DNA of 64,000 nucleotides. It comes from Takakia lepidozioides (taxonomy: Eukaryota > Plantae > Bryophyta). Position numbers and translations under genes: made by a program. Shown here in pieces: positions 31,740 through 61,168 of this stretch. Positions within the stretch are counted from its first letter, which is position 1. Every line of letters starts with the position of its first letter. The notes under the pieces were generated by a model. It saw only the letters and a list, made by a program, of their open reading frames with translations. It was not told the DNA's origin and did no database searches. The stretch covers positions 54,188,001-54,252,000 of the forward strand of contig CM060732.1 of the NCBI GenBank assembly GCA_030704615.1. Reading direction: 5' to 3'.

Positions 31740-33896
31740 TGGGCATGACAATGGTGGAATTGACAAGTGATCCAAGGTCTAGCTGATGGGAGCTCAACGC
31801 CATGGATACTTAATTGAAGATCATGGATTGCAGGAAGGCGAGTAACGATGGGGCTACTTTTGCACCCGGCCTCTTGATCTATTGATTTTAGATACTGGGA
31901 CATGTGCGATTGAAGACCAAGCGATGATTTTATTGAGATGGATACTTGTCAACTATCCGGTGTTAGAGGGACCTAATCACCAGCCAGGGGGGCGATTGTG
32001 GCATAGCTTTCTAGGATTGTGTGCTTAGAATGTATGGTGGACAACGATGTATATTGTGGCACGATGCTTAGGTGCATGACAGCTGTCATGGTTTTAGTCA
32101 TAGTTAACTAGAATTACCTACTTCTAGTTAACTAGGACATTTTGGATATTTATATTTGTATTTTGTGTGTTGGGACTTCATTTGGTCTCACATGCCAAGT
32201 GAGGTGTCAAACCTCACTTGGGACACGGGGACGGGTTTTTCCCTTGTGAGTGTTGAGGAGGGCTCATCTTCTTGTAGTTGAGCCTCCATGAGCCTCTCCC
32301 ACCTCCATAGGTATTGAGAGGGAGTGTGGTGAGGGCTTTGTAGGGTGGATTCCTTTAGCAAAGGTGCCCTTTGCTTGACTTAGTTTATGTGATTGAGTGG
32401 ATTCATGAGTGGAGTGTTTCCATTGTGTGTTCACTTTCATTATCATTGTGGCATAGCTTTCTAGGATTGTGTGCTTAGAATGTATGGTGGACAGCGATGT
32501 ATATTGTGGCACGATGCTAAGGTGCACGACACGCTCAAGGCGAAACACCACCCCTAGGTAAATAAGTACATCATTAACTGTGTGCGGAAAGTGAGAAACA
32601 GGCACATGATCCTCCCAAGAGATGTCCACGTGATGCTCTAGCTTCCAGGTAGGGCGTAAGTTTGCCAAGGCCAGAGAGCTACCTCCTCGAACGAGCTCCC
32701 ACAATCTCTCAGGACTAGGACATTTGGGCGGTAGGAAACTTTCGAATTTAGTGGTGAGCTCACCCGCCACCATAAATTGAGGAATGCCCAACTCAGCCCA
32801 GCTCAACTTTCCACCAGCAGCCAACCTAGTTTTTGCAACAGCCAGGGGGAGTTTGAGCCCAATCTCTGTAGCATATAAAAGTTGCAAGATTTTGGCCGCT
32901 CGTGCACCCTAAAAGGCTTGGATACACTTCCGCCGTTGTTCAGCCTCCTCCTCAGGGGTATTCGCAGGCTTGAGCCCTTCAAGAGCAACAGTTGACTCGA
33001 ATTGCTAGACCCAGTGGTCAGATGGCGTATCCAAAATAAGCTCAGGCCGTTCAATGGGTTGATCAAGGGGCAGGTAGTCTACTTCCACCACCAACTTAGG
33101 ATCTACAGTTCCACGAAGAACACCATCAAAGACGGCTTCAAAGTTGCCTTCCGACGTCTCCTTGTAAGCGTTGAGGTCAGACTTAGTAGAGGGGCGGGAC
33201 GAAGACGCCATTGCTGCAAAACGCACGAACACAACAAAGCAAGGAAGAGCAGCAAAACAACACAGACAAGGAAGAGACACAAAAATGCAAACTGAGAAGC
33301 GCCGCCATTGTCACCCTGTCAGTGTACAACAACCTATCGTACCCACAGCGAATGATAGAAGAATGAGTAACGAGATCTTGTAACCCGTCTCCACCAGGAT
33401 TCTGTACCACCGAGATTATTCCACTCCTCTGCGGTAGGTGCTAGTGTAAGGGGATGTTAGCCTGGCAAAGCGTGCCTGCGAGGAAGGAAGGATCTACACG
33501 ACGGGGAGCCAAGATATCACACTACATCACACGTTCATCCAGCACAGTCACACCTTCGTACACAAGTTAAACAAACTGAAAGTACACCGGTCCCTTAGGC
33601 TTCCAGGTGATCCCTTAAATAAAACCAAGGGGCTAATCTTATCAGACAGAGTGGCCATTTGTGATTGGCCAAGCGGATTATGTCTAGGTACTCAACCAGA
33701 TAGGACGCCACGTTGTTACTGCTTTAGGATAAGCTAGCTGTTTAGTTGCCTAGGATAAGCTGTTTAGTTGGCCATTAGGATAAGCTAGCTTTCCTAATGG
33801 CCATCCATCCATTGATATCATCCGACTACATTCATCCTAAGGAGAATATGTAGGAAGACAGAATCTGGCCATCACAGAGCGACAGCCCACAATTCA

Positions 33897-36540: not shown

Positions 36541-39500
36541 GGTTTTAGTCATGGTTTTAGTCATGGTTAACTAGAATTACCTACTTCTAGTTAACTAGGA
36601 TATTTTGGATATTTATATTTGTATTTTGTGTGTTGGGACTTCATTTGGTCTCATATGCCAAGTGAGGTGTCAAACCTCACTTGGGACATGGGGATGGGTT
36701 TTCCCCTTGTGAGTGTTGAGGAGGGCTCATCTTTTTGTAGTTAAGCGTCCATGAGCCTCCCCCACCTCCATAGCTCTATGTATTGAGAAGGAGTGTGGTG
36801 AGGGCTTTGTAGGGTGGATTCCTTTAGCAAAGGTGCCCTTGGCTTGACTTGGTTTATGTGATTGAGTGGATTCATGAGTGGAGTGTTTCCATTGTGTGTT
36901 CACTTCCATTATCACTGCAAGAAGATCATCTTATGCTTGTGAGTGTGGAGTGTAAGGATTAGCTTTAGCACTTGTGTTGGTGTACACCAAGGAGTGAGAG
37001 AGCTAAGAAAGCTCAAGTATCTCACAAGGCTTGGAAGGTATTGCAATGAGGAGTGTTTTTGCATTGCATCAAAGAGGTGGAGAGCTCAAGGAGAGAGCTC
37101 TTGAGTTACAAGACTTTGTAGAGGTAGAGAGCTTAAGGAGAGAGTTCTTATATCACAAAGCTTGCATGGTTTTGCAAGGTAAGTGCTTGTATGTGCATTA
37201 AGGGTTTGAGAGCTTGGAAAAGAGCTCTTGCATCACAAGAGAAGCGTCTTATGTGTGGCAAAGATAAACATTAGGGTTTCAAGAGCAAGCTCTAGTACTT
37301 GTTCATGGTGTGAAAGAGAAGCCAAAGAGCGGCACATGCTTGGGTTGGAAACACCATAGAAGGAGTACAACAAGGGTAGCTTGAGGAGCATTGAGTAGCT
37401 CAAGAGAAGCTGAGAAGTGGTTGTTCTATCCATGGTGAAATGAAGCCAAGTGGGGTTTCATTTGGTTGACAAACAAGCAAGCGAAGGCGGCGCTAGAAGG
37501 GAGTGCTTTTGCTAGTTCTATGAGTTATTGGATTGTTCTTGGTCAAGCAAGTGATTGACCAAGCAAGTGGCGCATGTGTGGATCATGCTTTCCAAGTGTG
37601 GCTTCCAATTCAAGCTTGAGGAGAGCTAGAAGGTGAAGTGAGCAAGTTCATTCCTTGTGTATGAGGTGGTGCATGTTGTGGAAGAAAAACCAAGAAGCTA
37701 CATAAGCTAGGGCTTGAAGACAACAAAAGCAACCACTTGGAGAGCATCAAGAAGCTCAAGATGACTCCAAAGGGAAGCATGTGGGTGAGAATTCTATCTA
37801 TGATGATGTGAAACCAAGCCTAGAGTATTGAAGAGCTTGGAGCACATGTGGGAGATCATTGGAGGTGGTCTTCATAAAGAAAGGAGATTGTGGCTCATGA
37901 CATGCATAGCAACTTCAACCATACATTAGCATGTGACAAGACAAGGAAGGGGAAGGTGAAGCTCATGTATTCATTCCCTTTTTGCTTAAGTTTTGTGGTG
38001 GATGGTTGATCAAGCAAGTGATGCTTATGTGGAGCATGCTCTTTAGGGCTTGTGACTTCAAGTTTGAGAAGATGAGCTCTTGAATAGAAGTGTGGATACA
38101 TATTATGACATGAATGAAGAGAACACCTAGGTCAAGAGGTGGAAGTGTGTGTGACTAGCCCATGCAAGGGAAAGCACATGAAAGATGGCATACAAAATTC
38201 AAATTCAAGCAAGGCTTGGCGCTTGTCATTAGGCACATTAGCGTGCTATGAGTTCTTTTTGTGAACAATGTATGGATACGAGTGGAGAGACTTTGCCTAC
38301 CATACGTTTTCATTAAAAGAGTATGACAACTAGGGTGTATGTGGAGGAGTATTGCCTTTGGAGGATCTTTGGGGGGTCCTTTGAGGAGCTTTTGTAAGAC
38401 ACTTGAAGAGCTCTTGAAGGGGTGTTTGGAGGACTGTTTGGAGGACTATTGGGGGACCTTGAAGACCAATATTTGGCAAACATTGGGAGCCTTTGGAGGG
38501 CTATTTGGAGGACTACTTTGGGTTCCTTGGAGGCTAATATTTGGCGAGCTTAAGGAGTCTTTGGCAATTTGTCTAAAGGACTTTTTGGGGTCCTTGAGGG
38601 CCAACATTTGGCAGGCTTTGGGGGCCTTAGTGAGATTGTTTGAGATACATCTTGAGGGCTCTTGGAGAGTTTTTTGAGAGACCCTGGAAGGTAGTTATGT
38701 CTGTTGGTCATGAACAAGAGCGTTTAGAGATAGGGGGGGACTGTGGGATGAGAGCATCTGGGATTAGGAATTGTTTTAGTTTCTCTTCCCCGTAGTCTTC
38801 CACCCTCTATGTAGGCCAAAACCTTTCCGTAGGTGGAGGCAAGAGTCAGTCTAGGTTTGGGCCGGGGTGTCCTTGCAGGAGCGACATTGAGGAGTGTTTT
38901 TTTTCTGGTCTGGGGGAGTTACTGTTTTGATTTTCTTGAGTTTGGATCCCCCCCACACCTATATGCTTGACTGTGCGCCATGTCAATTTTGTGTGGGCGC
39001 TTGTTTTCATAGTAGGTTGGTTCGGATTTGATCACCGGCCAATCCTAGAGCATGCTGTCGGTGGTGAGGCTGGGGTGATGACCAGTCAGACCATCATTGT
39101 TTCTCTTTTGGTGAGGCTAGGTTGATGACCAGCAGACCCTATGAGTGCTTGCGGTGGATGCAGGTGCAGGTTTATATTACAAACCTAGTAGTCTAAGCCA
39201 TAAGCTGTAACATGTTCTCTACCCGGTTACCTTGTGGAAAAGGGGATTAGAGACAGGTTTACAACAAGTGTGGTTGTGAGTTTTCATCACGGAGGTGCCA
39301 CCAGTTGCTGAGGAGAGTGCCGGTACGAGCACCAGGGATACTAGTGGGTATAGAAGACGAGGTGTGCGGTTTAGGCCACCTTCACCTTCAGTGTCTTCTG
39401 AGGAAGGTTCAGACTCAAAGTTAGGAGGATTCTTGCCGAGGGTGCAAGCCACTTCCGTGCCATTGTTGTGGGATACGATGGAGGAAATGTATGGAGCTAC

Positions 39501-45500: not shown

Positions 45501-47214
45501 AGTTAGTGGCAAGGTGCATGATGTGTGATAGAGTGCGAGCTTCTTTCAATGCACCTACTCCATAATTGCATCATTTACCCATTATGGGTTTGGGCTATCG
45601 TTGGAGTCTTAACTTCGCAGGCCCATTGCCATTAACGATTCGCTATAACAAGTATGTGCTGGTGATGGTGGAACATTTCTCCAAGTGGATTGAACTGGTG
45701 GCATTGCCTGACAAGGCAAGTGAGGGGGCTGCGTATGCATTTTTAGATCGAGTGCTTAGCCAATTTGGTGCTCCAGCCGAGGTACTCACGGACCAGGGGA
45801 GAGAGTTCTTGGGGGAGTTTCAGGCGTTGTGTGAGCAAGCCTTGATAGATCACCGCACTACTACTCGGGATCATCCCGAGGCTAATGACTTGGCAGAGAG
45901 GGTTGTACAAACACTCAAGCGAGGCTTGCGCAAGTATGGCTTGCAGAAGGGACACTTAGGAGATTGGGACTTTCAGCTACCTTGGTTGGCCATGGGCTAT
46001 AGATTTAGCAAACAAGCATCACTTGCCTCGTTCTTGCCTTATTTCCTTCTTTTTGGCCGAGAGCCAGATTTGCCTGCATCTATTCGCAGGGAGACTGCAG
46101 TAGTTCTCAACCTTGATGATCCGGATGTGTGGATACAAGCATGTGCCCAGCGGGGTCGTTAACCATGACTAAAACCATGACAGCTGTCGTGCACCTAAAC
46201 ATCGTGCCATAATATACATCGTTGTCCACCATACATTCTAAGCACACAATCCTAGAAACCTATGCCACAATCGCCCCCCTAGCTGGTGATTAGGTCCCTC
46301 CAACACCGGATAACTGACAAGTATCCATCTCAATAAAATCATCGCTTGGTCTTCAATCGCACATGTCCTAGTATCTAAAATCAATAGATCAAGAGGCTGG
46401 GTGCAAAAGTAGCCCCATCGTTACTCGCCTTCCTGCAATCCATGATCTTCAATTAAGTATCCATGGCGTTGAGCTCCCATCAGCTAGACCTTGGATCACT
46501 TGTCAATTCCACCATTGTCATGCCCACTACCTATGTCCAAGGCATCGTGGACACAACCATTCTCCACTAGGAACCTTCTCAAGTGGCGGTGTCAAGCATC
46601 CCATGTGCCACCCCCTTGAGCATTTGTCACACACCAACATGGTCGCGGCACCACCAGCATACCCACATAGCATGTAACGCAACCCTGTAGGGTACCACTG
46701 CAAGGTTGGGATGTATCCTCCCATCCACATGTGGAAGGTGACATGGCGCACAATTGCGCACATGGTCTTTCCATACCATGCCATCTCGAATTACCTACTT
46801 CTAGTTAACTAGGACATTTTGGATATTTATATTTGTATTTTGTGTGTTGGGACTTCATTTGGTCTCACATGCCAAATGAGGTGTCAAACCTCACTTGGGA
46901 CATGGGGATGGGTTTTCCCCTTGTGAGTGTTGAGGAGGGCTCATCTTCTTGTAGTTGAGCCTCCATGAGCCTCCCCCACCTCCATAGCTCTAGGTATTGA
47001 GAGGGAGTGTGGTGAGGGCTTTGTAGGGTGGATTCCTTTAGCTAAGGTGCCCTTGGCTTGACTTGATTTATGTGATTGAGTGGATTCATGAGTGGAGTGT
47101 TTCCATTGTGTGTTCACTTTCATTATCATTGTGGCATAGGTTTCTAGGATTGTGTGCTTAGAATGTATGGTGGACAACGATGTATGTTGTGGCACAATGC
47201 TTAGGTGCACGACA
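36541..47214 (+). mobile_element. DNMT/PHD Ty3/Gypsy element copy 2 (full domain set, many stops, internal inversion ~46159-46786)
   Basis: A1 ~36541-36914; gag from 39295; protease LLDSGA in 41162-42172; DNMT ~42190-43140; RT (YIDD) 43796-44251; RNase H 44273-45340; integrase 45566-46155; PHD, PPT and B1 inverted; rest of A2 to 47128; B2 47129-47214 ending GACA. Confidence 0.92.
39295..46786 (+). pseudogene. Disrupted Gag-PR-DNMT-RT-RH-INT-PHD polyprotein of copy 2
   Basis: Collinear with copy 3. DNMT motif IV reads GWSCQ* and motif VI reads GNV (inactivated). PHD part lies on the - strand (46527-46784). Confidence 0.88.
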
Positions 47215-47381
47215 TTAGGTTTGTAAGTGATTCAACACAACAAGAGCATTACGCGTGTCATAGTACAAGTTGTAAGAAAGCAAAAGATACATAGTTATAC
47301 AGTCAAACAGACAACTATCAATTTCTGTGGAATCTCTTGCCAATGGCAGGATGGGTTGGGAACAGCCAAGTCAGGAGGTGA

Positions 47382-47909
47382 ATGCCTGTCAAATTACCAC
47401 ATGTCCTTCTGAACATTGCACCTGCCCTACTGGACATGTATGCCAAATGTGGGTGCATCGAGGATGCCAAGGGAGTGTTCAACATTGTGGCTGAACGAGA
47501 TGTGGTGTCGTGGAATGCGATGCTTGCAGGGTATGCACAGCTGGGGCGCGGGATGGAAGCTCCAACCTTTGAGCAAATGATGGGGGAAGGGGTGAAGGCC
47601 GCCGACATAATGTTTGTGTGCGTTTGCAGTGTGTCTGGCAGCCCTGGAATAGGGCAAAGAGATCCCTAGTAACATCAACAAATCTGCAACTGTACCAGAT
47701 GTCATCCTGAACATTGTTGTGGTGGCCATGTATGCTAAATGTGGGAGCATTGAGGATGCCAAGGGAGTGTTCAACACTATGGCTGAACCAGATGTGGTGT
47801 CGTGGAATGCGATGCTTGCAGGGTGTGTAGAGCAGGAGTGCGGGATGGGGCTTTGGACACCTAAAAGGGTGAAGGTACCTTCTTCATCATATTTCACCCT
47901 GTTTTCCCT
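47382..47909 (+). pseudogene. PLS-class PPR fragment (inverted paralog of 7266-7910)
   Basis: ALLDMYAKCGCIEDAKGVF...DVVSWNAMLAGYAQLG and AMYAKCGSIEDA units; interrupted by element copy 3. Confidence 0.85.
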
Positions 47910-48236
47910 TGTCAAGTTATTTTACCACTAGTGTGAAACTAGCTAGGAAATAGCTAGCTTTTACATATTGACATTTGGGATTGGCCCAAGTGTCAATCCA
48001 GGGGTCAAGGCAGATTTAGGCCCTGGAGTGGTTATATTCACGGCAAGCGCGGGAGGCTCATCTTTCTCGAGTTGAGCCTCACCGCGCCTAGCTATGGCGC
48101 CGTAGTGTGGATTCCCCATGGCGTGGGGTGCACTTGGCTTGACTTGTATTTGAGTGATGAGGTTATATATGCATGAGTTTATGCTTCAGCTTTGTGAGCT
48201 CGCATGAGCTTGTGCTTGTATTCTTCTTCTTTATCA
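47910..48236 (+). repeat. Terminal repeat A1 (327 bp)
   Basis: Direct repeat of 59042-59368. Confidence 0.95.
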
Positions 48237-48252
48237 CTCGAGAAAGATGAGC
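48237..48252 (+). promoter_or_regulatory. Putative self-primer binding site
   Basis: CTCGAGAAAGATGAGC directly after A1 is the exact reverse complement of 48056-48071; no TGG-starting tRNA PBS. Confidence 0.7.
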
Positions 48253-49772
48253 TCGTATCTATGAGTGCTAGATACGAGTTAGTTGTAGCACTTGTGGTTT
48301 TTGCTTGAGAATGAGAGAAACCAAGTTGTTATGCAAGGAGCACCGTGGAGCTCTTGGTTGTTAGAAGCGGAGGCGATGTGGGTTACGAGGTGGTAAACCT
48401 TGGCATTCGATCTTCAGCTTCAGAGATGAAAGCACCATACTGTAGGTAATTCCAGAGCACCTTGATGGTTTCAGATTGTGTACATGCATGAGCAAGCACG
48501 ATTGGGAAGAGGACCAGTCAAGAGCAGGTTATAGTGGCTTTGGTGGCAAAGCTGAGAACTGGACTTGGGAATGCGAGCTGTCATTGTGTGAAGGATTGCA
48601 AGACCAAGCGAAAGGGCTGATTTGGCTTGGGGCAAATCAGTGCACTTTGTGGAGTATGGTGAGATTGGGTTTCAATCTCGAGCTTCAGCATTGAGAGGGC
48701 TCTTGTCATGGCAAGAGCAGGGCTGGAACAGGAGCTAAGAGGTGCGGCAAGGCCATGGAATGTGCACCTAGGGTTTCAGAGCTTGGAAGAAGAGCTCTTG
48801 CACCACAAGAGAAGTGTCTTGTGGCTGGAAATGTAAGCCTTAGGGTTTCAGGAGCTTGGCAAGGGCTGTGGAGTGCTTAGTCTTGTCTTAGAGAGCATCA
48901 AGGAGCCAAGGAGCCAAGATAGGGGGCTGATATCTCTTGTGTGAAGAGGTTGCATGTGTGGAGCATGTATTCAGCTCATTGAAGCTTCCATCTTCAAGCT
49001 TGGAGGGCAAGCAAGGAAGAGGGAAGGGCTGACTTCCCTTATGTGAGGGCAATGTATGTGTGGAGCATGCTATCAGCCTGGTGAAGGCTTGCACTTTTAG
49101 GTGTGGGAGTGCAAGGAAGGAAGGAAGGGGCTGGTTTCCCTGTAGGGCATGTAGAGCATGCTTTCAGCCTGCTGAAGCTTGTATTTTCAGGTTTGTGGAT
49201 GCAAGAAATGAAGCAAAGGAGCTGATTCTCTTATGGTGAGAGTGGGGCATGTGTGGAGCATGCCTTCAGCCCATTGAGGCTCTTGTTTTCAAGCCTTAGA
49301 GAGCTAGAACGGAAGGTCTAGGGCTGGTTTCCACTTGGAGTGAAAGAAAAGCACTTGTAGGGCCTATGTGAGTTGGGGTTTCAACTTCAAGCTTGAAGGG
49401 AGCGCAACTCTTGAAGCAACAGGTGTAGAGGGCTGGAATAGGCTCTAAGACAGATGCTATGGCCAATGAGAGTGCTTGAATGAGTGCTCACAAGGGCTGG
49501 GAACCAGCAGGGCTTGGTTGTTTGCCATTGAGTTTAGTGGCGTGTTTGGGGAGGCTAAGTGAGAAAGAAGGCTTGGTTTGTGGCAACCACCTCATGGCTT
49601 AGGGCTACTATGGTGGTGTGTGGGAGCCGAAAGAGCAAGGATACCTTGCTGATTTCCTCACAGCCACCATAGCTCGGTGGAAAGAAGCCTAGAGTCCAAG
49701 AGACACAAACCCTAGCTTGGCGTGGCTAAACCCCTTGGAGAAATGGCTAAACTGCCAGAGCGGCCATGTGTG

Positions 49773-50552
49773 GGGCTGTGACAGGCTGTGGCAAGCTGTG
49801 ACGGGCTGTGGCAAGCTGTGACAGGCTGTGATGGGCTGTGATAGGCTGTGCCCAGTGGCCTGTGGGGCTGTGACGGGCTGTGACAGGCTGTGATGGGCTG
49901 TGATGGGCTGTGACAGGCTGTGCCCTGTGCCGTGTGGGGCTGTGACGGGCTGTGTCAGGCTGTGACAGGCTGTGCCCAGTGGCCTTTGGGGCTGTGACGG
50001 GCTGTGACAGGCTGTGACAGGCTGTGCCCTGTGCCCTGTGGGGCTGTGACGGGCTGTGAGGGGCTGTGACAGGCCGTGCCCATGGCCTTTGGGGCTGTGA
50101 CGGCTGTGAGGGGCTGTGACAGGCCGTGCCTGAGGCCTTTGAGGCTGTGAGGGGCTGTGAGGGGCTGTGACAGGCCGTGCCCTAGGCCTTTGAGGCTGTG
50201 ACGGGCTGTGATGGGCTGTGGCAAGCTGTGACAGGCTGTGATGGGCTGTGATGGGCTGTGACAGGCTGTGCCCTGTGCCCTGTGAGGCTGTGACGGGCTG
50301 TGAGGGGCTGTGACAGGCCGTGCCCATGGCCTTTGGGGCTGTGACGGGCTGTGAGGGGCTGTGACAGGCCGTGCCCATGGCCTTTGGGGCTGTGAGGGGC
50401 TGTGAGGGGCTGTGACAGGCCGTGCCCATGGCCTTTGGGGCTGTGACGGGCTGTGAGGGGCTGTGACAGGCCGTGCCTGAGGCCTTTGAGGCTGTGACGG
50501 GCTGTGAGGGGCTGCGACAGGCTGTGCCCAGTGGCCTGTGGGACTGTGACGG
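49773..50552 (+). repeat. Minisatellite of ~10-bp GGGCTGTGAC-type units with ~49-bp higher-order repeats in the leader of copy 3
   Basis: Dozens of GGCTGTGA units are visible. Confidence 0.92.
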
Positions 50553-51295
50553 CCTGACCAGTGAGCTGTGTGGGCCTGTGCTGGTTTGTGGTGGCCCGTG
50601 TTGACCTGTGGACGGCTTGTGCTGACTCGTGGAGGCACTGGTGGACTGCCTAAGGACTGGCATGTGGTCTAGAAGGCCGAATTTTGAAGCTCGTGGAGGG
50701 CGGTTTGAGGAGTATCTTCATGATATTCCCATGGTCATGCAAGTGAGGGTAGAGAGGAGAGGCAGAGTGTTGGGATGAGAGCATGCTGGGGTTAGGCATT
50801 GCTTTAGCTTCTCTTCCTCGTAGTTTCCACCCTCTCATTAGGCCAAGACCTTTCCGTAGGTGGAGGCAAGAGTCAGTCCGGGTTTGGGCTGGGGTGTCCT
50901 TGCAGGAGCAACACCGTGGAGTTGTTTTTGGTGTGGGGGAGTTGTCGATCTGATTTCTTGTGTTTGGATCCCCTCCATACCTGCATGCTTGACTGTGCGC
51001 CATGCTAGTTTTGTGTGGGCGCTTGTTTTTATAGGTGATTGGTCCGGATTTGATCACCGGCCAGTCCTAGAGCATGCTGTCGATGGTGAGGCTGGGGTGA
51101 TGACCAGCCAGACCATCATTGTTTCTCCTGTGGTGAGGTTGGAGGTGATGACCAGCCAACCATAGGAGTGCTTGCGGTGGATGCAGGTACAGGTGTAGGC
51201 TATGTTAGGAACTTAGTATTCCAAACCATAAGCCGCAACAGGTTCTCTACCCGGTTACCTTGTGGAGAGGGGGTTAGGGACATGTTCATGACCGG

Positions 51296-52729
51296 TTGAG
51301 TGTCAACACGGAGGTGCCACTAGTTGCTGGGGACAGTGCCGGTTCGAGCACTAGCGATACTAGTGGGTACACGAGACGAGGTGTGCGGTTTAGGCCACCT
51401 TCACCTCCTGTGTCTTCTACGGAAGGTTCTGATTCGGATTGTGAATCAGGAGGACTCATACCGGCGGTGCAAGTTGTTTCTTTGCCATTGTTGTGGGACA
51501 CAATGGAGGAGATGTATGGAGCTACCAAGGGGCCACGAAGGTACTCTGGGGCGGTGGGCACCATCGAGTTGGATGATTTTATCCAAGAGTTTGATAGTTG
51601 GTGTGATTTGCAGCAAATGCGCAATCCACAACTATTTACGCCTTTCATGGCATGGAAGGGGCTGTTTCAGCACCTTGAGGGGCCGCCTATGGATGATTAC
51701 CATGAGTTCAGGCGGGGGCATGAGGTTGAGATCGAGGAGTGGAGGATGTACTGGTCACCCGACTATGTCTCCATCACTAGGGGCACTAGAGCCACGAGGG
51801 CAGTGGCTACACCTGCCGCTGCACCGGCAGCTTCAGCAAGCAGCAGTGGGACTGGTGGTACAGTAGCTACGACGTCCACCCAAGCCACTACCGCACCAGC
51901 ACTAGCACCCGTGCCTGCCTTCAACCCTGTTGTGGAGTTCTTCGAAGAGTTGAGAGGGAACTACCAAGGGGTGAGGACAGAGAAGTTGCGGAGCTTGCAA
52001 GAGTTCCAACGGAAGCCGACCGAGAGCTTGAGGGAGGCTTTCACTCGCATGAGGCGCTTGATAAATGTAACCCAAGGGGTTACGGAAGCTCAGGCAGTCC
52101 AATTCTGGTATGGGATATTGGACAAGGAGCTGAGGAGAAGGGTGCGGGATGCAACTCTCCTACAAGCGGCCCAACCCACCTTAGCAAATGTGTTTTTGCT
52201 GGCAGAGCGGATAGAGCTCAACATGGTGGAGGAACGAGTGGTCATGGTGGGATTTGCTAAGGAGACACCACGGGGTAGTGGTGCTCCTAGCCAACCACTA
52301 CCTCAACGTGCTCAAGGCAACAAGGGGGCTCAGGTGAAGCTCAGGGAAGGGCAGAGAGGACCTCAGATGCAGGGGTCTCTCCCTTCATTTGCTGGCCAAC
52401 AACGGGCGGATGTGGTGTGCTGGACATGTGGAGGACCCCATGTCAAGAAGGATTGTCCAGAGGGAGGCAAAGGGCCGGCACATGCACAGCCTGCACAGTT
52501 ACAGTGTGGGCATTGTGGCAAACACGGGCATGGAGAGGCCAGTGTTATGGTTTGCATCCTGAGTTGCGCCCAGGCCAGTTCCAAGGGAACAATGGTGGCC
52601 GGGGGCGAGGTGGAGCAGCCCAGAGGGGACGAGGTGGCCAGCCACGAGGCCAAGGGCAAGCTCAACGTGGCCAAGGACGCGGAGGTCAGGGTGTTGACCA
52701 AGGCATGGCCAACCGGCTTCAGCAGCTAG
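51296..52729 (+). CDS. gag: Gag (capsid-like region + CCHC zinc knuckles) of copy 3; true frame shifts at ~52540
   Basis: FQRKPTESLREAFTRMRRL (retrotransposon gag-type motif), knuckle CWTCGGPHVKKDC, second knuckle CGHCGKHGH..C across a 1-nt deletion. Start codon uncertain. Confidence 0.85.
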   Translation: MSVNTEVPLVAGDSAGSSTSDTSGYTRRGVRFRPPSPPVSSTEGSDSDCESGGLIPAVQVVSLPLLWDTMEEMYGATKGPRRYSGAVGTIELDDFIQEFDSWCDLQQMRNPQLFTPFMAWKGLFQHLEGPPMDDYHEFRRGHEVEIEEWRMYWSPDYVSITRGTRATRAVATPAAAPAASASSSGTGGTVATTSTQATTAPALAPVPAFNPVVEFFEELRGNYQGVRTEKLRSLQEFQRKPTESLREAFTRMRRLINVTQGVTEAQAVQFWYGILDKELRRRVRDATLLQAAQPTLANVFLLAERIELNMVEERVVMVGFAKETPRGSGAPSQPLPQRAQGNKGAQVKLREGQRGPQMQGSLPSFAGQQRADVVCWTCGGPHVKKDCPEGGKGPAHAQPAQLQCGHCGKHGHGEASVMVCILSCAQASSKGTMVAGGEVEQPRGDEVASHEAKGKLNVAKDAEVRVLTKAWPTGFSS

Positions 52730-55509
52730 AGCAGAGGCTCGCTGCCATGGCTACAGCTCAGGTGGTACCGGCTCTAAGGCCGGATGGTCCACCTCCTGCT
52801 CCTGAGGGAGGAGATATGGGAGGCATGGGATTCATGTGTGGAGCAGCACTACCACTAGTGCAGGTGGAGTCTGCTGCAGCCGTGACTCGAGGAGCAGCAC
52901 GAGTTCCTGAGCCACGAGGTGCAGAGGTGGAGTTGGATCCACAGCGTGGGGAGGCAAGCCGTCAGGCTAGGCTTCCTCAGTCATTCACATTGGCGGAGAC
53001 AGTGTCGACGCCATCCATGGCACCTAGTTCTCGCCCGACTGTTACCGAGGCGGAGGTTACTATGCCATTGGGGAGAGCTACACGGGTAGCACCACTACCT
53101 AGTGTTGCCAAGGCTACGGCAGCTAGTGTGCTGCTAGGAGCGGCCACATCTGTGTGCCAGGCTCCATTGTTCTCGGCTACCATGATTGCGACGCCGGGGG
53201 TAAGACCAGCTGAGGTGTTCAGGCTGGCAGCTACACTCTGTGAGAGTGGGGAGGTTACTTCATCTTCTGCGGAGATAGTGGGAGGTGTAGTGCCGGAGGG
53301 ATCCTCGGATTTGAGGGTCAAGACTGCCACGGCGGCGCCATGGCAAGCTGCAGCTGCCAGGTTGATGGAGCTGCCAGCTAGGCCAGCCATTGAGCGCGCC
53401 ATGGTGACACCTGGAGTTGTCATGTTAGACAACCAGGATGGCATTTTCTGTTTGAGTGGACCGGCAGGCAAGAGGTACCGGCCACTGCGAGTCTTGTTGG
53501 ACTCGGGAGCTCAGCCACTGATGCTGGGCAGAGCTGCTATTGCAGGCTTGGGCCTCACGGAGGCGGATATGGAGCCTTGTCCTTTCCAGATACAGACGTC
53601 TCTGGGAGGATCGGAGCAGGCTCGGGGCATGACACGGCATGAGTTGGCTATCAGACTACGGCCGGATCACCCTACAGATGGCTCAGTGATGCGAGCCAAG
53701 GCCATTGTGACAGACGCAGTCTCATACGATGTCCTGGTTGGTGGGGCAGTGTTGTACCCCATGGGCTTCACCCTGGATTTTTGGGAGGAGTCAGCTTCCT
53801 ATAGGCCTGCATGGCAGTCAGGGGAGGGCCGGCGTGTGCAGCTCCCTGTGACGTTCATAGGAGGAGTTGCGGTTGCCCAGCGAGGCAAGATGCCGACACT
53901 AGCAGCATTCACAGCGGCAGTGAGTTGGCCTAGAGAGTTGCTTGAGGGCAATGCTCATTCAGAGGATGTACCACCTCCGGGAGAGCAGGATGACATGTAT
54001 GGTATGGCGGAGTTGCCTACCATGGTTGCTCAGACTCCATTGTGGGGCACGAGCAAGGATTTGCAGCGGGATGCTGATCGACGGGTGCAACAAGCCTGGG
54101 TGGAGGCTTTTGTACCGTCAGGAGAGGAGGAGAGTGTGGGATTGCACCAGGACCACCTCAATTGTCTCCATTGGACACCACACCTATTGTGTGGCAGTCC
54201 GGATGAAGGCATTTGTCTTCTGGACTTGTTTGGCGGGATCAGCACCGGATTGGCTGCTGTGTTACAGGCAGGTGTACGAGTTCGGCGTTACCTGTATGTG
54301 GAGAGGGATGAGACTGCACGACGCGTTTCACTTCGCCATGTTGCTCAGTTGGTGCAGCGGTACCCTGAGTTGTTGTCGGTGTCTGCAATTCGTGGATATC
54401 AGCAGGCCTTGCCAGCAGACATTTCGTTGCTGGGGGCGCAGGATTTGGAGCGGGTTGGCTCCATTGATCTGGTAGTGGCAGGTTGGCCCTGCCAAGGGCA
54501 TTCATCAGCCGGGCATGGCAATGGATTGCGAGACTCGAGGTCGGGTCTGTTTTGGGAGATGGTGCGGGTTTTGCGCCACTTGCAGCTTCATCAAGCTGTA
54601 TCTCCAGCATACATCTTGGAGAATGTGCCACTGATGGGCGATTCTCGGGCCAGGGTGATGGCCAGTGTGCATCAAGTCCGGTCGTGGCTTGGGTCAGCAG
54701 TGTTGCTAGATGCAGCTACAGTGGGGTCACGGGCTCATCGTCCACGGCTATGGTGGACTAACATGATGCCACCCGCACTGCTCAAGCGTGCATTTGATGG
54801 GGTGCAGCGGCCAGCACATCTCACAGTGGATAACATTCTGGACACAGGGAGGCAGTCTCAACGTGTGAGACACGATGACCGTTCGCCTTTGGCAGTGGTC
54901 AACAAGGTGGGTCAACCACGAGCAGCATTACCTACACTGCTCAGCTTCCCAGGATCGCATGCTTTCCGGGATAGTGGACCTGGCCTCCTGTGGGATGCTC
55001 AGTTGCAGCAGTTAGTGGAGCCTAATGCTGACGAGCGTGAGCGGGCAATGGGTTTTACCACTGGTACCACGGCGGTGTCGTCTCTTTCTGAGGCATCACG
55101 TCGTCAAGTGTTGGGGCAAGCAATGGATCTCAATTGCTTGACCTGGATTATCAGCTTGGCTCTAGCTGAGCAACGCAGAGTGCGGAATACACTTCCCTCA
55201 ATGGTCTCTCTGCCTACCGAGACGGTACAGGCAGTGAGTGGGGGCGAGCATATGAGGACCACGGGGTGCATGCATCCATGGCACACGTGGGAGGTGCTCG
55301 AGGTTCAGAGGGAGTTGGCAGCCAAGGCGGCTGTGATGGATGAGGTTGGGGATTCTTCTCGAGTTGAGGAGGTCCTCAAGGATGAGATGATGGGGCAGGA
55401 TGATGCCTTGTCATTGACTGAGCAGGAGGGAGTACTGCTCAAGAGGTTGCAGCATAGCAACCACGGGACGCGTCCTCTACCTCTAAGCCCACTGGACTTA
55501 AGGTTGTAG
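52417..55509 (+). CDS. Polyprotein segment: RGG-rich Gag tail, aspartic protease, DNMT3-like C5 cytosine methyltransferase (~54208-55170)
   Basis: Protease VLLDSGAQP...VLVGG. MTase motifs in canonical order: I LLDLFGGISTG, II YVERD, IV DLVVAGWPCQGHS, V SRSGLFWE, VI YILENV, VIII AHRPRLWWTN, IX ERERAMGF, X RRQVLGQAM. Confidence 0.93.
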   Translation: MLDMWRTPCQEGLSRGRQRAGTCTACTVTVWALWQTRAWRGQCYGLHPELRPGQFQGNNGGRGRGGAAQRGRGGQPRGQGQAQRGQGRGGQGVDQGMANRLQQLEQRLAAMATAQVVPALRPDGPPPAPEGGDMGGMGFMCGAALPLVQVESAAAVTRGAARVPEPRGAEVELDPQRGEASRQARLPQSFTLAETVSTPSMAPSSRPTVTEAEVTMPLGRATRVAPLPSVAKATAASVLLGAATSVCQAPLFSATMIATPGVRPAEVFRLAATLCESGEVTSSSAEIVGGVVPEGSSDLRVKTATAAPWQAAAARLMELPARPAIERAMVTPGVVMLDNQDGIFCLSGPAGKRYRPLRVLLDSGAQPLMLGRAAIAGLGLTEADMEPCPFQIQTSLGGSEQARGMTRHELAIRLRPDHPTDGSVMRAKAIVTDAVSYDVLVGGAVLYPMGFTLDFWEESASYRPAWQSGEGRRVQLPVTFIGGVAVAQRGKMPTLAAFTAAVSWPRELLEGNAHSEDVPPPGEQDDMYGMAELPTMVAQTPLWGTSKDLQRDADRRVQQAWVEAFVPSGEEESVGLHQDHLNCLHWTPHLLCGSPDEGICLLDLFGGISTGLAAVLQAGVRVRRYLYVERDETARRVSLRHVAQLVQRYPELLSVSAIRGYQQALPADISLLGAQDLERVGSIDLVVAGWPCQGHSSAGHGNGLRDSRSGLFWEMVRVLRHLQLHQAVSPAYILENVPLMGDSRARVMASVHQVRSWLGSAVLLDAATVGSRAHRPRLWWTNMMPPALLKRAFDGVQRPAHLTVDNILDTGRQSQRVRHDDRSPLAVVNKVGQPRAALPTLLSFPGSHAFRDSGPGLLWDAQLQQLVEPNADERERAMGFTTGTTAVSSLSEASRRQVLGQAMDLNCLTWIISLALAEQRRVRNTLPSMVSLPTETVQAVSGGEHMRTTGCMHPWHTWEVLEVQRELAAKAAVMDEVGDSSRVEEVLKDEMMGQDDALSLTEQEGVLLKRLQHSNHGTRPLPLSPLDLRL

Positions 55510-55616
55510 TTACGGAGGACAATTGGGAGCCTGACATTGGACCCATTGTCACCGGAGGAGAGAGACGACGTATACGGCGGTTCCTGAGGGCTTACAGGAA
55601 TTGCTTTGCCTTCAGT

Positions 55617-56348
55617 TTGAAGGACTTGGGAGCACTGAAGGGTCAAGAGATCCGTATTGAGTTGGCCACTGACACGCCAATCTTTCGGAGACCCTATAGA
55701 TACAGTGACATGGAGAGGTCTTTGATTCAGATGAGGACTCAAGATCTCTGGGAGGCAGGTTTGGTGGAGCTCTCTGGTGGAGAGTATGCTTCAGCCACAG
55801 TGATGCCAGCCAAGAAGGATGTCTATGGCAATTGGACGGAGAGACGTATGTGCGGTGATTACCGGCCTGTAAATCGTCAGACCAAGTCCGATAAGTATGC
55901 CATGCCAACACCAGAGGAGATCTTTGATGCCATCGGGCATGCTAAGGCCTTTAGCACTTTGGATTTACGATCCGGATATCACCAGTTGCCAATCAAGGAG
56001 GCGGACAAGCAGAAGACGGCATTCTGGGGGATCAATGAGCACGGCAAGGATTGCCTATATCAGTGGCGGTTCTTACCATTTGGGCTTAAGAATGCTCCTG
56101 CAGAGTTTCAGAGAGTCATGGATAGGATTCTAGCAGGGGTGGACTTTGCTCGGTGCTACATAGATGACATCATCATCTTTAGTGTTACGATGGAGGAGCA
56201 TGAGAGACACCTTCAGGTGGTATTGGAGCGCTTGAGAGCGCACGGATTGAAGTTGCATCCGGGGAAGTGCAAGTTTTTCCACAACCAGATTGAGTATCTG
56301 GGTCACATGATATATCCTGGAGGATTGGGGTACAGCAGACTAAGGTAG
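55617..56348 (+). CDS. pol: Reverse transcriptase (Ty3/Gypsy type) of copy 3
   Basis: RMCGDYRPVN, LDLRSGYHQ, KTAF, LPFGLKNAPAEFQ, YIDDIIIFS, KCKF..IEYLGH. Confidence 0.95.
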   Translation: MKDLGALKGQEIRIELATDTPIFRRPYRYSDMERSLIQMRTQDLWEAGLVELSGGEYASATVMPAKKDVYGNWTERRMCGDYRPVNRQTKSDKYAMPTPEEIFDAIGHAKAFSTLDLRSGYHQLPIKEADKQKTAFWGINEHGKDCLYQWRFLPFGLKNAPAEFQRVMDRILAGVDFARCYIDDIIIFSVTMEEHERHLQVVLERLRAHGLKLHPGKCKFFHNQIEYLGHMIYPGGLGYSRLR

Positions 56349-56380
56349 AGGCCATTGCACAAATTCCACGCCCCACGGAT

Positions 56381-58591
56381 GTGAGCCGAGTTCGAGCTTT
56401 CATGGGGTTGGCAAACTATTATAGACGGTTTGTCAAGGGATTTAGTACCATTGCAAAGGCTCTAACCAAGCTGACCAAGGTGGACCAGGAGTGGCAGTGG
56501 GAAGATGAGCAGGAACGAGCTTTTCAAGAGCTCAAGGCGAGGTTGACCTCGGCGCCTATCTTGAGACGACCTATCAGGGGGCGTCCCTTTCAGCTGCATA
56601 CGGATTGGAGCATGCTGGGGCTTGGAGCGGTGCTCACACAGGTGGATGATGAGGGAAGAGAGTTCGTAGTGGCTTACGCTAGCCGCTCGAACAACGCTGC
56701 AGAGGCTAAGTACAGCTCATATGAGGGAGAGTGCTTAGCTGCAGTGTGGGCCGTGGCACACTTCAGGTGCTATCTATACGGCAATCTTTTCACCCTTGTC
56801 ACGGATCACCAGCCACTCAAGTGGTTGATGGAGTCAGACAAGCTTACAGGGAAGCTTGCACGGTGGGCACTTATACTCCAGGAGTATGACTTTCAGGTTG
56901 TGCATCGACCGGGTTTGGTCAATCGGGATGCGGATGGATTGAGTCGCAATCCATGCATGAGCCAGCAGGATGACACTGGAGCTCGGTGGCATGGTGAGAC
57001 GGACGAGGAGATGGTGCCGGGATGGCACGCATCTGCATTTTTGTGTATCTTGGCATCGGGAGGTCAGATTGGACCTACAACAGGGATGACTGTAGACGGA
57101 GTGTCTGAGGACCCTGAGGCTAGTGATGAGCTAGGTGGTGCCAGAGATATACATGAGGATTCGGCTGTGTTGGACTACCTCCGCACGGGAGACACGGCAG
57201 CCATTGTGACTGCCAGGGAGAGGGATCGGATCCTGCAACGAGCCAAGAGGTTCAAGTGGGAGGGGATACACCTACTTCGAGTGTGGGAGGATGGTCGGGT
57301 GAGGATTGTGCCTCACCCCACACAGCGTGCACGGTTAGTGCGGCATGCCCATGAGGAGTTGGGGCATTTTGGAGTGCGACGCACTCACAGTTTACTGCAG
57401 GGGCAGTATTGGTGGCGTGGTATGCATACAGAGGTGCAACAGTTTGTGGCTAGGTGCATGGTGTGTGACAGGGTGCGTGCTTCATTCAACGCCCCTACAC
57501 CACAGTTGCATCCTTTACCTATCATGGGATTGGGCTACAGGTGGAGTCTTGACTTCGCAGGACCGTTGCCACTGACTATGCGCCACCACAGATATGTGTT
57601 GGTGATGGTGGAGCACTTCTCCAAGTGGATTGAGTTGGTTCCATTGCCTGACAAGGCTAGTGAGGGGGCTGCGTATGCATTCTTGGATCGTGTGCTTAGC
57701 CGATTTGGTGCTCCAGCTGAGGTACTCACGGACCAAGGGAGAGAGTTCTTGGGGGAGTTTCAGGCTTTGTGTGATAAAGCCTTGATAGACCACCGCACCA
57801 CTTCTCGGGATCATCCTGAGGCCGATGGCTTAGCAGAGAGAGTTGTTCAGACGGTGAAGAGGGGTTTGCGCAAGTATGGCTTGCAGAAGGGACACCTAGG
57901 AGATTGGGATCTTCAGGTTCCTTGGTTAGCCATGGGCTACAGGTTCAGCAAACAAGCATCACTTGCCTCCTTCTCACCATATTTCCTTCTCTTTGGCCGA
58001 GAGCCGGATTTGCCTGCAGCCATTCGTAGGGACACTGCTCAAGTCCTTAACCTTGACGATCCGGACGTGTGGGTACGTGCATGTGATCAGCGTGCAGAGT
58101 TGTTCAAGAAAGTCATGCCCATGGCTTTTGAGAACCTTGCCATTGCACAGCACCGTGATACGTTGAGGTATGCCACTATACGTGGTGGAGGATATCGTCC
58201 TGGGGTTCGGAGGTTTAGCCCTGGTGACTATGTTTATTTGCAGCAGACTGCTCCTACGACTCTGGATGTTACTGCAGGGCGTGTTATTCTGAGGGTTCGA
58301 GAGGTGTTGCCCTCAGGGGTCCTGATCTTGGAGGGTCGGGATGGCATGACTTGGAAGGACCATGTGCGTAATTGTGCGCCATGTCACCTTCCCAATGTCG
58401 ATGGCAGAGTTGACCCAAACTTGGCAGTGGTACCTGCAGGTTTGAGGTGCATGCTCTGTGGGTCTGCCAAAGGGGCAGCCACCATGCTGGTGTGTGATCG
58501 ATGCTCAAGGGGTTGGCATATGGGATGCTTGACACCACCTCTTGAGAAGGTTCCTGACGGAGATTGGTTGTGTCCACACTGCTTGGGATAG
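56381..58591 (+). CDS. pol: RNase H - DDE integrase - C-terminal PHD finger of copy 3
   Basis: LHTDWS, YEGECLA, TDHQPL, DADGLSR; HHCC (HEELGH...CMVC); SLDFAGP, TDQGREF, DGLAER; C4HC3 PHD CMLC...CDRC..GWHMGC...WLCPHC at 58448-58588. Confidence 0.95.
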   Translation: MSRVRAFMGLANYYRRFVKGFSTIAKALTKLTKVDQEWQWEDEQERAFQELKARLTSAPILRRPIRGRPFQLHTDWSMLGLGAVLTQVDDEGREFVVAYASRSNNAAEAKYSSYEGECLAAVWAVAHFRCYLYGNLFTLVTDHQPLKWLMESDKLTGKLARWALILQEYDFQVVHRPGLVNRDADGLSRNPCMSQQDDTGARWHGETDEEMVPGWHASAFLCILASGGQIGPTTGMTVDGVSEDPEASDELGGARDIHEDSAVLDYLRTGDTAAIVTARERDRILQRAKRFKWEGIHLLRVWEDGRVRIVPHPTQRARLVRHAHEELGHFGVRRTHSLLQGQYWWRGMHTEVQQFVARCMVCDRVRASFNAPTPQLHPLPIMGLGYRWSLDFAGPLPLTMRHHRYVLVMVEHFSKWIELVPLPDKASEGAAYAFLDRVLSRFGAPAEVLTDQGREFLGEFQALCDKALIDHRTTSRDHPEADGLAERVVQTVKRGLRKYGLQKGHLGDWDLQVPWLAMGYRFSKQASLASFSPYFLLFGREPDLPAAIRRDTAQVLNLDDPDVWVRACDQRAELFKKVMPMAFENLAIAQHRDTLRYATIRGGGYRPGVRRFSPGDYVYLQQTAPTTLDVTAGRVILRVREVLPSGVLILEGRDGMTWKDHVRNCAPCHLPNVDGRVDPNLAVVPAGLRCMLCGSAKGAATMLVCDRCSRGWHMGCLTPPLEKVPDGDWLCPHCLG

Positions 58592-58840
58592 TGGCAGTGG
58601 ACATGACTGGAGGCAGCTAACAAGACATGGGAGGCCAAGCTCATAGGAGTCAATACATGAGATCCCAAGCTCAAGTTCACAGGTTGCAAGACGGCGACTA
58701 ACGATGGGGCAACTCTTGCACCCGGCCTCTTGATCTATCGAGTTTGAGTGTAGTAGGGATAGTGGTGGAGGACTTAGTGAGGCTATGGTCACTATCACAT
58801 CTTGTGGCTACCTGGACTTAGAGGGACCTAAGCACCAGCT

Positions 58841-58850
58841 AGGGGGGCGA
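58841..58850 (+). promoter_or_regulatory. Polypurine tract (plus-strand primer) preceding B1
   Basis: AGGGGGGCGA immediately before B1; identical in copy 1 (31986-31995) and copy 2 (inverted, 46271-46280). Confidence 0.75.
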
Positions 58851-59557
58851 TTGTGTGGACTAGTGACTGCCATAGTGGGCAGCGTAGTGGCAGCCTAGTG
58901 ACTGACTAGTTGTAGCCTAGTGGTTGGACTAGTGGCTGGACTAGTGGTAGACTAGTGGTATACTAGTGTGTGGTGTGCACATGTGTTGTGTGGTTTTGGA
59001 CAGCGATGTAGTTGTGTAGCGATATGTATGCGCACGACAGCTGTCAAGTTATTTTACCACTAGTGTGAAACTAGCTAGGAAATAGCTAGCTTTTACATAT
59101 TGACATTTGGGATTGGCCCAAGTGTCAATCCAGGGGTCAAGGCAGATTTAGGCCCTGGAGTGGTTATCTTCACGGCAAGCGCGGGAGGCTCATCTTTCTC
59201 GAGTTGAGCCTCACCGCGCCTAGCTATGGCGCCGTAGTGTGGATTCCCCATGGCGTGGGGTGCACTTGGCTTGACTTGTATTTGAGTGATGAGGTTATAT
59301 ATGCATGAGTTTATGCTTCAGCTTTGTGAGCTCGCATGAGCTTGTGCTTGTATTCTTCTTCTTTATCATTGTGTGGACTAGTGACTGCCATAGTGGGCAG
59401 CGTAGTGGCAGCCTAGTGACTGACTAGTTGTAGCCTAGTGGTTGGACTAGTGGCTGGACTAGTGGTAGACTAGTGGTATACTAGTGTGTGGTGTGCACAT
59501 GTGTTGTGTGGTTTTGGACAGCGATGTAGTTGTGTAGCGATATGTATGCGCACGACA
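58851..59557 (+). repeat. 3' repeat block B1-GC-A2-B2
   Basis: B = 189 bp rich in CTAGTG; palindromic B1/A2 junction GACAGCTGTC at 59036-59045. Confidence 0.95.
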
Positions 59558-61168
59558 CCCTGCTAGTGTTTGCTTTGACAATTCTAGGCTGTCATTGTCA
59601 AGGATGTATGCATGATTTGGGTAGAGGCATGGATAGCTGAAGGAGCAGGGATTTCGTGTGGGTCCAGATTCATCCAAGAGGACCAGATTTCAAGCACAAG
59701 ATTACCTGTGATTCCCTGTGGATCAATAGCTACAAGAAACCTGCATGGGTAGATGGTCAATTGGAAGCAGCGGCACAAGTGATAAAATCAGGCACTGCTA
59801 ATGAAGGCATCTTCTTCAACACATTTCACCCTGTTTTTCCCTCTTATCAAGATCGGCCCTAAATTTACATGTTCAATTCTGCAAGTTAGCTGGTTGAGTG
59901 AATCTAGTTTGGAGTGACTTTGACATGATACTGTCAATGTGACAACAGGAAAGTGTCAAAAAATAGGTAACAGAGATGAGGAGAAGTTGTGGAATAAATA
60001 CTTATCTGAGCCCAGTCACTGATGGGTCAACCGGGGCAGAAAGGTGAATGCCTGCTACATTTTAGAGAGTAGCAGACGCAATTCAGCATAGAAACTAGTG
60101 TGCTACGCTGAGTTGGGTGTTTCCTAGAACAAATGTAGGCTGTCATTGTCAGCTGCTAGTAGCAAGGCAAGTGAATGCTTGATTTGTGCAGAGGCATGGA
60201 TAGCTGAAGGAGTAGAGATAGAATGTGGGTGACGCAGGGTGCTGGGCAATGGGCAAGACATCTTTGTATAAACGTGAGTAACCTTCCTATCCTCCTAGCT
60301 CTCATTTTTAGTGCATGTTTCTTTGTGAAGTATCTGACGACTTCGCAAACACACCAACCTTTTTGCTTTGGTTTGTTTACGAGTCCATGGGATAGAAGTT
60401 ACCATAAACAACACTGGCATTGGTTTTTCATATATGGTATTAGATAATTCTCTTAATTGTTTCCGCCTTGGCAGGTTGCTCAGTGAGTCCCACCACGTGA
60501 TGAGTCGCTTTGGAGTATAGCGAGTGAATGTCTCACAATGCAATGTTGGTTGGTGCATCTTATGCAAGAACTTGGAAAACAAACAGATGTCCTTGCTGTA
60601 GTAATTCTTAAAGCCATGCAAGCCTTAGTTTTTGATGGGTTGCAGATTGATGGAATACATGAGTACTTAGAAGATTCTGGGTGAACTCTTTTCAAAGTGT
60701 TATAGTTAGACAATATTATTCATGAGAACATGTGACTATTTTATGTATTTTTAGATCGCGACAAAAATGATAATGATAAATAGATTGGTAAATAGAGATG
60801 GTGTACAATCTCTTGGTTTTGCTAAGCTTGTTGCAGTTATGTCTTGCTGCCTTGTTCTCTTTGTATTATATATTATATTTCATTGTTGTAATAGACATGT
60901 ACATGACTGCTATCAGAGTCATAATAATGACTACATCTATTTTCACTCTCCAATAGTACTACACCACGTGGCAGAAATACATATATGTAAAAAAATAGCA
61001 ATACACCCAAAAAAACACCCATCATGACACATGTCAATCTGTTGAGGGACCATGTGTAAAAACTGCAATGCGCCACATGTTGCAACCGGATTAGCATGCC
61101 CGTAGTCATAGTTCGCAATCATGGAGAGCAAACACTCTGCCATGTGTCATTTCCTGTATCGAGCACGT
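59558..61168 (-). repeat. Inverted duplication copy 2, last segment (corresponds to ~5734-7363)
   Basis: Reverse-complement match, with mirrored ORF peptides. Confidence 0.88.

Follow-up and report, generated by a model that had tools for sequence, protein, structure and literature searches.

In the 64-kb window, by which we mean the whole 64,000-nucleotide stretch of Takakia lepidozioides DNA that was analysed, an 11.6-kb retroelement, E3, is built from two repeat segments, A and B, in the order A1-ORFs-B1-A2-B2 (Table 1). Both of its ends are backed by a paralogous empty site at ~7360-7363 on the minus strand. A1 and A2 agree at 326 of 327 positions and B1 and B2 at 189 of 189. Four overlapping frames encode Gag-like, protease-like, C5 methyltransferase, reverse transcriptase (RT), RNase H, DDE integrase and PHD domains, and the order protease-RT-RNase H-integrase, with the HHCC and DDE motifs, is that of Ty3/Gypsy elements. 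A Pfam scan of 18 frames found no tyrosine recombinase, an rve integrase being present instead; likewise, Pfam matched a PHD finger and no chromodomain at the integrase C terminus. The long leader of E3 contains a complex array of ~10-nt units (49767-50594). E3 is inserted in a repeat (47225-47909 plus 59558-61168) that has its empty paralogue in inverted orientation at 5734-8049; the tandem units of this repeat, which we take to resemble fragments of PPR genes, gave no Pfam match in the single frame tested. On the minus strand, 61445-63449 holds a separate Gypsy-type element, which encodes aspartyl protease, dUTPase and RT.

Table 1. Features of E3 and of the damaged copies E1 and E2, in window coordinates
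Feature	Position	Strand	Remarks
E3, whole element	47910..59557	+	TGTC...GACA; order A1-ORFs-B1-A2-B2
E3, left target-site duplication CCCT	47906..47909	+	
E3, A1	47910..48236	+	putative 3' part of U3, R, U5
E3, TATA-like TATATTC	48033..48039	+	27 nt 5' of 48060; lines up with relatives' TATA motif
E3, hairpin spanning the putative U3/R border	48047..48087	+	12-nt loop 48061-48072; -32.5 kcal/mol, z -4.8
E3, predicted self-primer core ATCTTTCTCGAG	48060..48071	+	48072 adds one possible pair, 48056-48059 four
E3, GGCTTGACTT	48136..48145	+	predicted alternative partner of 48069-48078 when the upstream arm is absent; p 0.98
E3, primer-binding site core CTCGAGAAAGAT	48237..48248	+	possible pairing range 48236-48252
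E3, leader hairpin right after the primer-binding site	48250..48280	+	12 bp, p 0.95; rival fold in other folding runs
E3, Gag-like frame	51278..52729	+	Retrotrans_gag E 0.002, under the curated cut-off
E3, protease-like (LLDSGA motif) and C5 cytosine methyltransferase frame	52291..55509	+	PF00145 E 2e-12
E3, reverse transcriptase frame, YIDD	55458..56348	+	RVT_1 E 7e-34
E3, RNase H, DDE integrase (HHCC, D-D-E motifs) and PHD finger frame	56294..58591	+	Pfam matches, motifs
E3, polypurine tract AGGGGGGCGA	58841..58850	+	directly 5' of B1
E3, B1	58851..59039	+	putative 5' part of U3
E3, internal palindrome GACA-GC-TGTC	59036..59045	.	element ends head to head, 2-nt spacer; putative integrase cutting site
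E3, A2	59042..59368	+	contains second primer copy, 59192-59203
E3, B2	59369..59557	+	A2/B2 joint is the putative join of two cDNA ends
E3, right target-site duplication CCCT	59558..59561	+	
E1, 5' end	23239..23282	+	32-nt A1 remnant, then primer-binding site CTACAAGAAGAT (23271-23282)
E1, 3' end	31996..32531	+	B1 31996-32081, GC, A2 32084-32445 (primer copy 32266-32277), B2 32446-32531
E2, 5' end	36549..36926	+	A1 (damaged start), primer 36729-36740, primer-binding site 36915-36926
E2, 3' end	46158..47214	.	inverted piece 46158-46789 (B1-GC-A2 start), then remaining A2, B2 (47129-47214)

E1 and E2 are damaged copies of a second subfamily with the same layout as E3. One breakpoint of the E2 inversion falls within the palindromic hairpin at the A2 start. 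E1 is a mosaic, its segment 27582-30006 being 92% like E3 and 69-72% like E2, and the flanks of that segment resembling E2 at 93-96% and E3 at about 80%; both subfamilies have therefore recombined despite differing in their predicted primers.

A sequence-only reading of this DNA had noted that the 16 nt following A1 (48237-48252) repeat 48056-48071 inside A exactly, in reverse-complemented form, and had proposed that the family primes minus-strand synthesis from its own RNA. The complementarity holds, and the perfect duplex reaches 17 bp (48056-48072 with 48236-48252); the final base of A1 (48236) may belong to the primer-binding site instead. Over the whole element, the only inverted matches of at least 14 nt are this duplex and its A2 twin. 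The conserved core comprises 12-13 nt from 48060, and the four additional pairs are peculiar to the E3 copy. The hairpin described around the primer, GCGCGG-GAGGCTCA paired with TGAGCCTC-A-CCGCGC, is real as well (Table 1). In the second subfamily, 32266-32277 pairs with 23271-23282 at 12 of 12 positions; the hairpin by itself is weak (z -1.25). Of these two partners, one lies in A2 and the other at the 5' end of a single element, E1, whose A1 is reduced to 32 nt. E2 has kept 10 Watson-Crick and 2 G-U pairs between the corresponding segments.

Relatives were collected from metagenomes (the best 80 of 439 loci) and from genome contigs (6 loci). Eight families had A plus the sequence following it; A could be given a definite end in seven of them and not in L083, and each of these seven is represented by its best-preserved copy (E3, E1, L016, L048, L081, L001 and L022). 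Pairs were counted family by family; one six-family alignment had misplaced the primer in two. The covariation that the earlier reading had seen between two subfamilies extends to the whole set: the first 11 nt after A pair 11/11 with the family's own A in seven of seven families, which are not seven independent trials because L081 and L001 are close kin, versus 6-10 of 11 pairs at most with the A of the six other families. More than one Watson-Crick pair type occurs in 10 of the 11 columns, and in all seven families the primer-binding site adjoins the point where A, delimited independently, ends. Simple repeats overwhelmed a generic inverted-repeat scan, which gave way to an anchored one with background counts; at 20,000 random positions, true sites included, a 12/12 complement within 310 nt upstream was found at 10 and one of at least 11/12 at 76.

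Pairing was also followed in 17 A1 copies of two large metagenome families. These are old copies: 11/11 pairs are left in four (two of them representing one insertion), 10 in five and 9 in two, while site or partner is not intact in five and one is truncated. L012 has lost the site from A1 and still has it in A2, and a loss after insertion is therefore indicated. In L012 (1766-2074), L075 (4629-4930) and L014 (4629-4950), similar short deletions have removed the A1 primer hairpin wholly or in part. The deep-branching L083 yielded no assignable primer and L083-L085 no assignable site, and the end of A is missing from L002 and L003.

Most plant Gypsy lineages are primed by tRNA, and half-tRNA priming occurs in Copia lineages, as described in PMC6317226. 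A host tRNA or an internal tRNA fragment could thus be the primer here too, with the match to A arising by chance or as a by-product of copying. Chance would have to supply, in each family, a match whose background rate is the 10 in 20,000 given above. Across the seven families there is neither a TGG start nor a fixed sequence at the site; the variable columns always match the family's own A. Within the window no tRNA gene was found, and no Rfam match was found across 47800-48500. Because no site starts with TGG and two subfamilies of the same host differ in the site, tRNA priming is disfavored, and we regard it as very improbable, the least probable of the readings weighed here.

The pairing might instead serve a structural role, as part of a leader fold, a dimerization or packaging signal or a bridge between the two ends in strand transfer, while something else acts as primer. 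Repeat A is indeed rich in hairpins, and in the predicted folds of E3 and L001 only the first 9 and the first 10 primer pairs form, respectively, with the 3' bases of the primer preferring a stem in U5; a stem similar to that made by 48136-48145 in E3 is predicted in L001 only. Against such a role, the partner begins at the first base past A in seven of seven families, exactly where a primer must end, and no other primer-binding motif was found 3' of A in these families. We consider the structural explanation improbable. Priming of the element by its own RNA, as originally proposed, is supported by the covariation across seven families and by sites that lack both TGG and a fixed sequence; to judge from these comparisons, self-priming by one RNA end or the other is very probable.

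The RNA end that would act as primer is suggested by what surrounds the core. CA or TA stands at -1/+1 of the core site in 12 of 12 copies. Pairing stops exactly at the core A in eight of these 12 and continues beyond it by 1 nt in L038, by 3 in L001 and L022 and by 4 in E3; in the three copies whose pairing is 3-4 nt longer, the core start was set on the A by us. A TATA[AGT] motif lies 27-32 nt upstream in five of seven families (at 27 in E3 and at 29, 29, 31 and 32), a range that was chosen post hoc with the data already seen, and is missing at that distance in the E1/E2 subfamily and L022. The same motif occurs at 80 of 2,433 positions in the same repeats and at 0 of 49 chance complements. 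The TATA spacing and the halt of pairing at a pyrimidine-A step favor the 5' end of the RNA over its 3' end, and transcription would accordingly start near 48060, not necessarily at 48056. In the A2 of E3, the fourth base of TATATTC is C, and the TATA motif is lost there.

Were the 3' end to prime, the transcript would end or be cut at 59203-59204 in A2 and anneal to the primer-binding site with the same pairing and polarity, and the two-strand binding energies do not separate the two ends: the 5' end is favored in four of seven families and the 3' end in three, E3 among the latter. Given the TATA spacing, R would then consist of the primer alone, and pairing halts at the 5' side of the site and not at a fixed 3' feature. 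In one family, five of five copies carry AATAAG or AATAAA 39-46 nt downstream of the site, and the RNA of that family would therefore end after the primer; no such poly(A)-like hexamer was found downstream in the other families.

Predicted folds bear on the same choice. When the RNA is folded from the site, the primer helix forms in 14 of 14 copies (mean p 0.53-0.98), and when it is folded from the start of A, helix p is ≤0.22 in 8 of 14; the rows of E2, L016 and L013 in this 14-copy set are one base out of register, and E2 and L016 were refolded. Upstream sequence does not block the helix in the other six copies, all of one hairpin-less family. The 5' arm of the hairpin lies between TATA and site in six families, and in four of the families it would hold the site of a primer still joined to upstream RNA. 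In E3, this arm would be missing from the 5' end of the RNA and kept in the A2 copy. The idea that the primer must occupy the hairpin loop was rejected, loop position not being conserved: the primer lies in the loop in the window copies and in the 3' arm in L016, L081, L001 and L022, and one family has no hairpin.

One copy, L030, appears to preserve a product of extension: past A2, at 3361-3878, come the primer-binding sequence and then positions 1-180 of A in inverted form (12 mismatches), stopping precisely at the palindrome half-site. It represents polymerase extension in the primer register together with an end made at the internal site, and fits either end model. A complement of the primer plus all of upstream A is what copying of a primer still joined to upstream RNA would yield, as in 3'-end priming, but this is a single copy that snap-back of the copied primer also explains. 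With no precedent for 3'-end priming in the literature searched, we think it unlikely that the 3' end is used, and hold priming by the RNA 5' end to be quite probable.

A G-rich polypurine tract lies 5' of B in 10 of 10 copies listed; its terminal A in E3 may instead be the first base of B. Since the primer site follows A and the polypurine tract precedes B, the LTR that is copied must be B+GC+A. In inserted copies, by contrast, TGTC of A forms the start and GACA of B the finish, and a perfect 4-nt target duplication flanks nine of the 11 copies that have two ends (one site is common to two); the exceptions are L038 (3 of 4 nt) and L049 (none). The spacer between B1 and A2 is always 2 nt, GC in 13 of 21 cases and GT, AT, AC or AA in the remainder; most of these joints were found by a pattern that requires two bases, and a BLAST survey of B copies found no other spacing. 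The joints between A2 and B2 are precise in 11 of 17 copies and show loss or gain in six, as an end-join would leave. That the element ends at the internal palindrome suggests end-joining combined with an integrase cut inside the repeat, a route that all 17 A2/B2 copies fit. This route does not account for the one-sidedness of the cut: B+GC is carried by none of 17 A1 left flanks, although the palindrome would be present twice, in identical form, in a joined circle. Copies of the form A-ORFs-B (L013, L016, L020 and L069) were considered as evidence of one-LTR circles and rejected, because L069, with a single B, shares one insertion site and both flanks with L070, which has B1-A2-B2; recombination or assembly collapse that removed A2 accounts for L069 at least.

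We put at roughly 0.78 the probability of a cycle in which the first 12-13 nt of the transcript prime from its 5' end, followed by end-joining and an integrase cut within the repeat. Transcription would begin at about 48060, ~30 nt past the TATA motif. Nucleotides 1-12, which are complementary to 48237-48248, would pair there, RNase H would sever the RNA behind them, and extension by RT would proceed from the A end. The hairpin would form only in the A2 copy, because the arm that it needs lies upstream of the transcript start, and would there mask the second copy of the primer. The polypurine tract, which stands directly before B1, would prime the plus strand, and ordinary LTR copying would then give B-GC-A-ORFs-B-GC-A. 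The A end of this product would be joined to its B start, and the DDE integrase would make a staggered cut in GACA-GC-TGTC of the upstream repeat, inserting A1-ORFs-B1-A2-B2 with a 4-bp duplication.

Among named proteins, the nearest come from Calypogeia and Marchantia, and relatives are also present in Sphagnum, Coleochaete and Klebsormidium; this distribution by itself would make a bryophyte host probable. In a FastTree of 133 RT-RNase H rows, E2 falls in a 78-row clade (support 100) with P0047, P0053 and P0065, which are named only as K. nitens retrotransposon proteins. The clade is separate from 12 chromo/SH3_Tf2 rows in a tree whose base is poorly resolved and which holds no named Tf1 or Tcn1 sequence. 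In viral contigs, a single-protein scan gave 0 loci and an alignment scan 72, none in the clade among the 8 placed in the tree; these 72 were excluded from the repeat analysis.

On the sequence features compared, the element belongs to the KnitGypsy-Dnmt3 clade, with which it shares a C5 methyltransferase in Pol (Dnmt3 subtype not assigned), A-ORFs-B-A-B repeats and an RT-RNase H that groups with K. nitens proteins. KnitGypsy-Dnmt3 of Klebsormidium nitens is described in the legend of Fig. 4 of de Mendoza et al. 2018 (PMC5890265) as combining DIRS-type repeats with Gypsy domains; the split-repeat layout was therefore already known. The covered part of that article describes neither a primer-binding site or polypurine tract nor a target duplication or a model of integration, priming terms do not occur in its text supplements, and KnitGypsy was found in this one paper only in the literature searched. 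The accessible portion of a bioRxiv preprint on methyltransferase-bearing LTR elements (10.64898/2026.05.21.726589) has no priming content. Relative to the KnitGypsy-Dnmt3 description, the clade is here traced into land-plant-type hosts.

Like Ty3/Gypsy elements in general, the family has a primer-binding site after U5, a polypurine tract before U3 and a short target duplication, but it lacks two complete colinear end LTRs, B being missing at the 5' end and placed at the far 3' end. Tf1 carries a chromodomain. In Tf1, the RNA's initial 11 bases anneal to the site, RNase H cutting after base 11 (PMC7175516), and in Tf1/Tf2/Tj1 and Tf1/Sushi elements, as reported in PMC7175516 and PMC4600332, the site is complementary to 11-12 nt inside the LTR at the presumed RNA 5' end, as here. 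Cleavage was demonstrated for Tf1, whereas we infer it from sequence; Tf1 LTRs are ordinary, whereas the present LTR is permuted, with a hairpin over the start site and a PHD-ended integrase. In plants, the covered parts of Neumann et al. 2019 (PMC6317226) and PMC2864245 predict self-priming for Tcn1 chromoviruses and TAR Copia elements only, which are other lineages with ordinary LTRs. Identity with the moss lineage Phygy, which makes 4-bp duplications and is assigned tRNA-Trp (81%), or with Selgy, assigned tRNA-Ala (PMC6317226), was rejected by primer type, no TGG-initial site being present in the seven families.

The A1-ORFs-B1-A2-B2 arrangement with internally abutted ends is shared with PAT, TOC, Ngaro and VIPER (PMC4157794, PMC6681497), which use a tyrosine recombinase, in contrast to the DDE integrase and 4-bp duplications seen here; the words primer and priming appear in neither source as far as covered. 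The putative cut resembles one made by retroviral integrases. HIV work has reportedly likewise dealt with integrase cleavage of two-LTR circle junctions. Foamy virus integrase, also a DDE enzyme, cleaves the palindrome formed by two att ends at the junction of two-LTR circles (PMC1180852). There the palindrome is the circle junction and the route a side one, while here it is stored inside the LTR and the end-join lies elsewhere.

Self-priming and the split layout have each been published, and what is new is their combination, which was not found in the literature searched. That search, whose coverage left out most subscription journals and the Repbase reports, also found nothing on priming in the KnitGypsy-Dnmt3 clade or in split-repeat elements, nor an account of the way in which the latter restore their ends. 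We would give about an even chance to the broader proposal of a widespread streptophyte Gypsy clade that dispenses with a host primer, primes from the RNA 5' end, silences the second primer by a hairpin in the 3' repeat and integrates only through a joined intermediate, its DDE integrase opening one chosen LTR palindrome. If this is true, a retroviral-type integrase would depend obligately on a circle route, self-priming would have arisen separately, and plain LTR copying would supply the template for split direct repeats. Both priming signals can be located here, which fixes the copied LTR and makes the cycle stepwise and testable. The clade would be a third plant lineage predicted to self-prime, beyond Tcn1 and TAR. 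Dependence of retroviral integrase on a joined DNA intermediate is an idea that was dropped for retroviruses, and these elements offer a natural test case of whether a retroviral-type integrase can depend on one.

Members of the clade also occur in genome records titled cyanobacterium, mollicute and halanaerobe (L081-L085), which are probably eukaryotic contigs binned into bacterial genomes. Outside the clade, in L146 (10700-12100), the frame after the integrase reads as a chromodomain and then a methyltransferase-like stretch when the DNA is read by eye.
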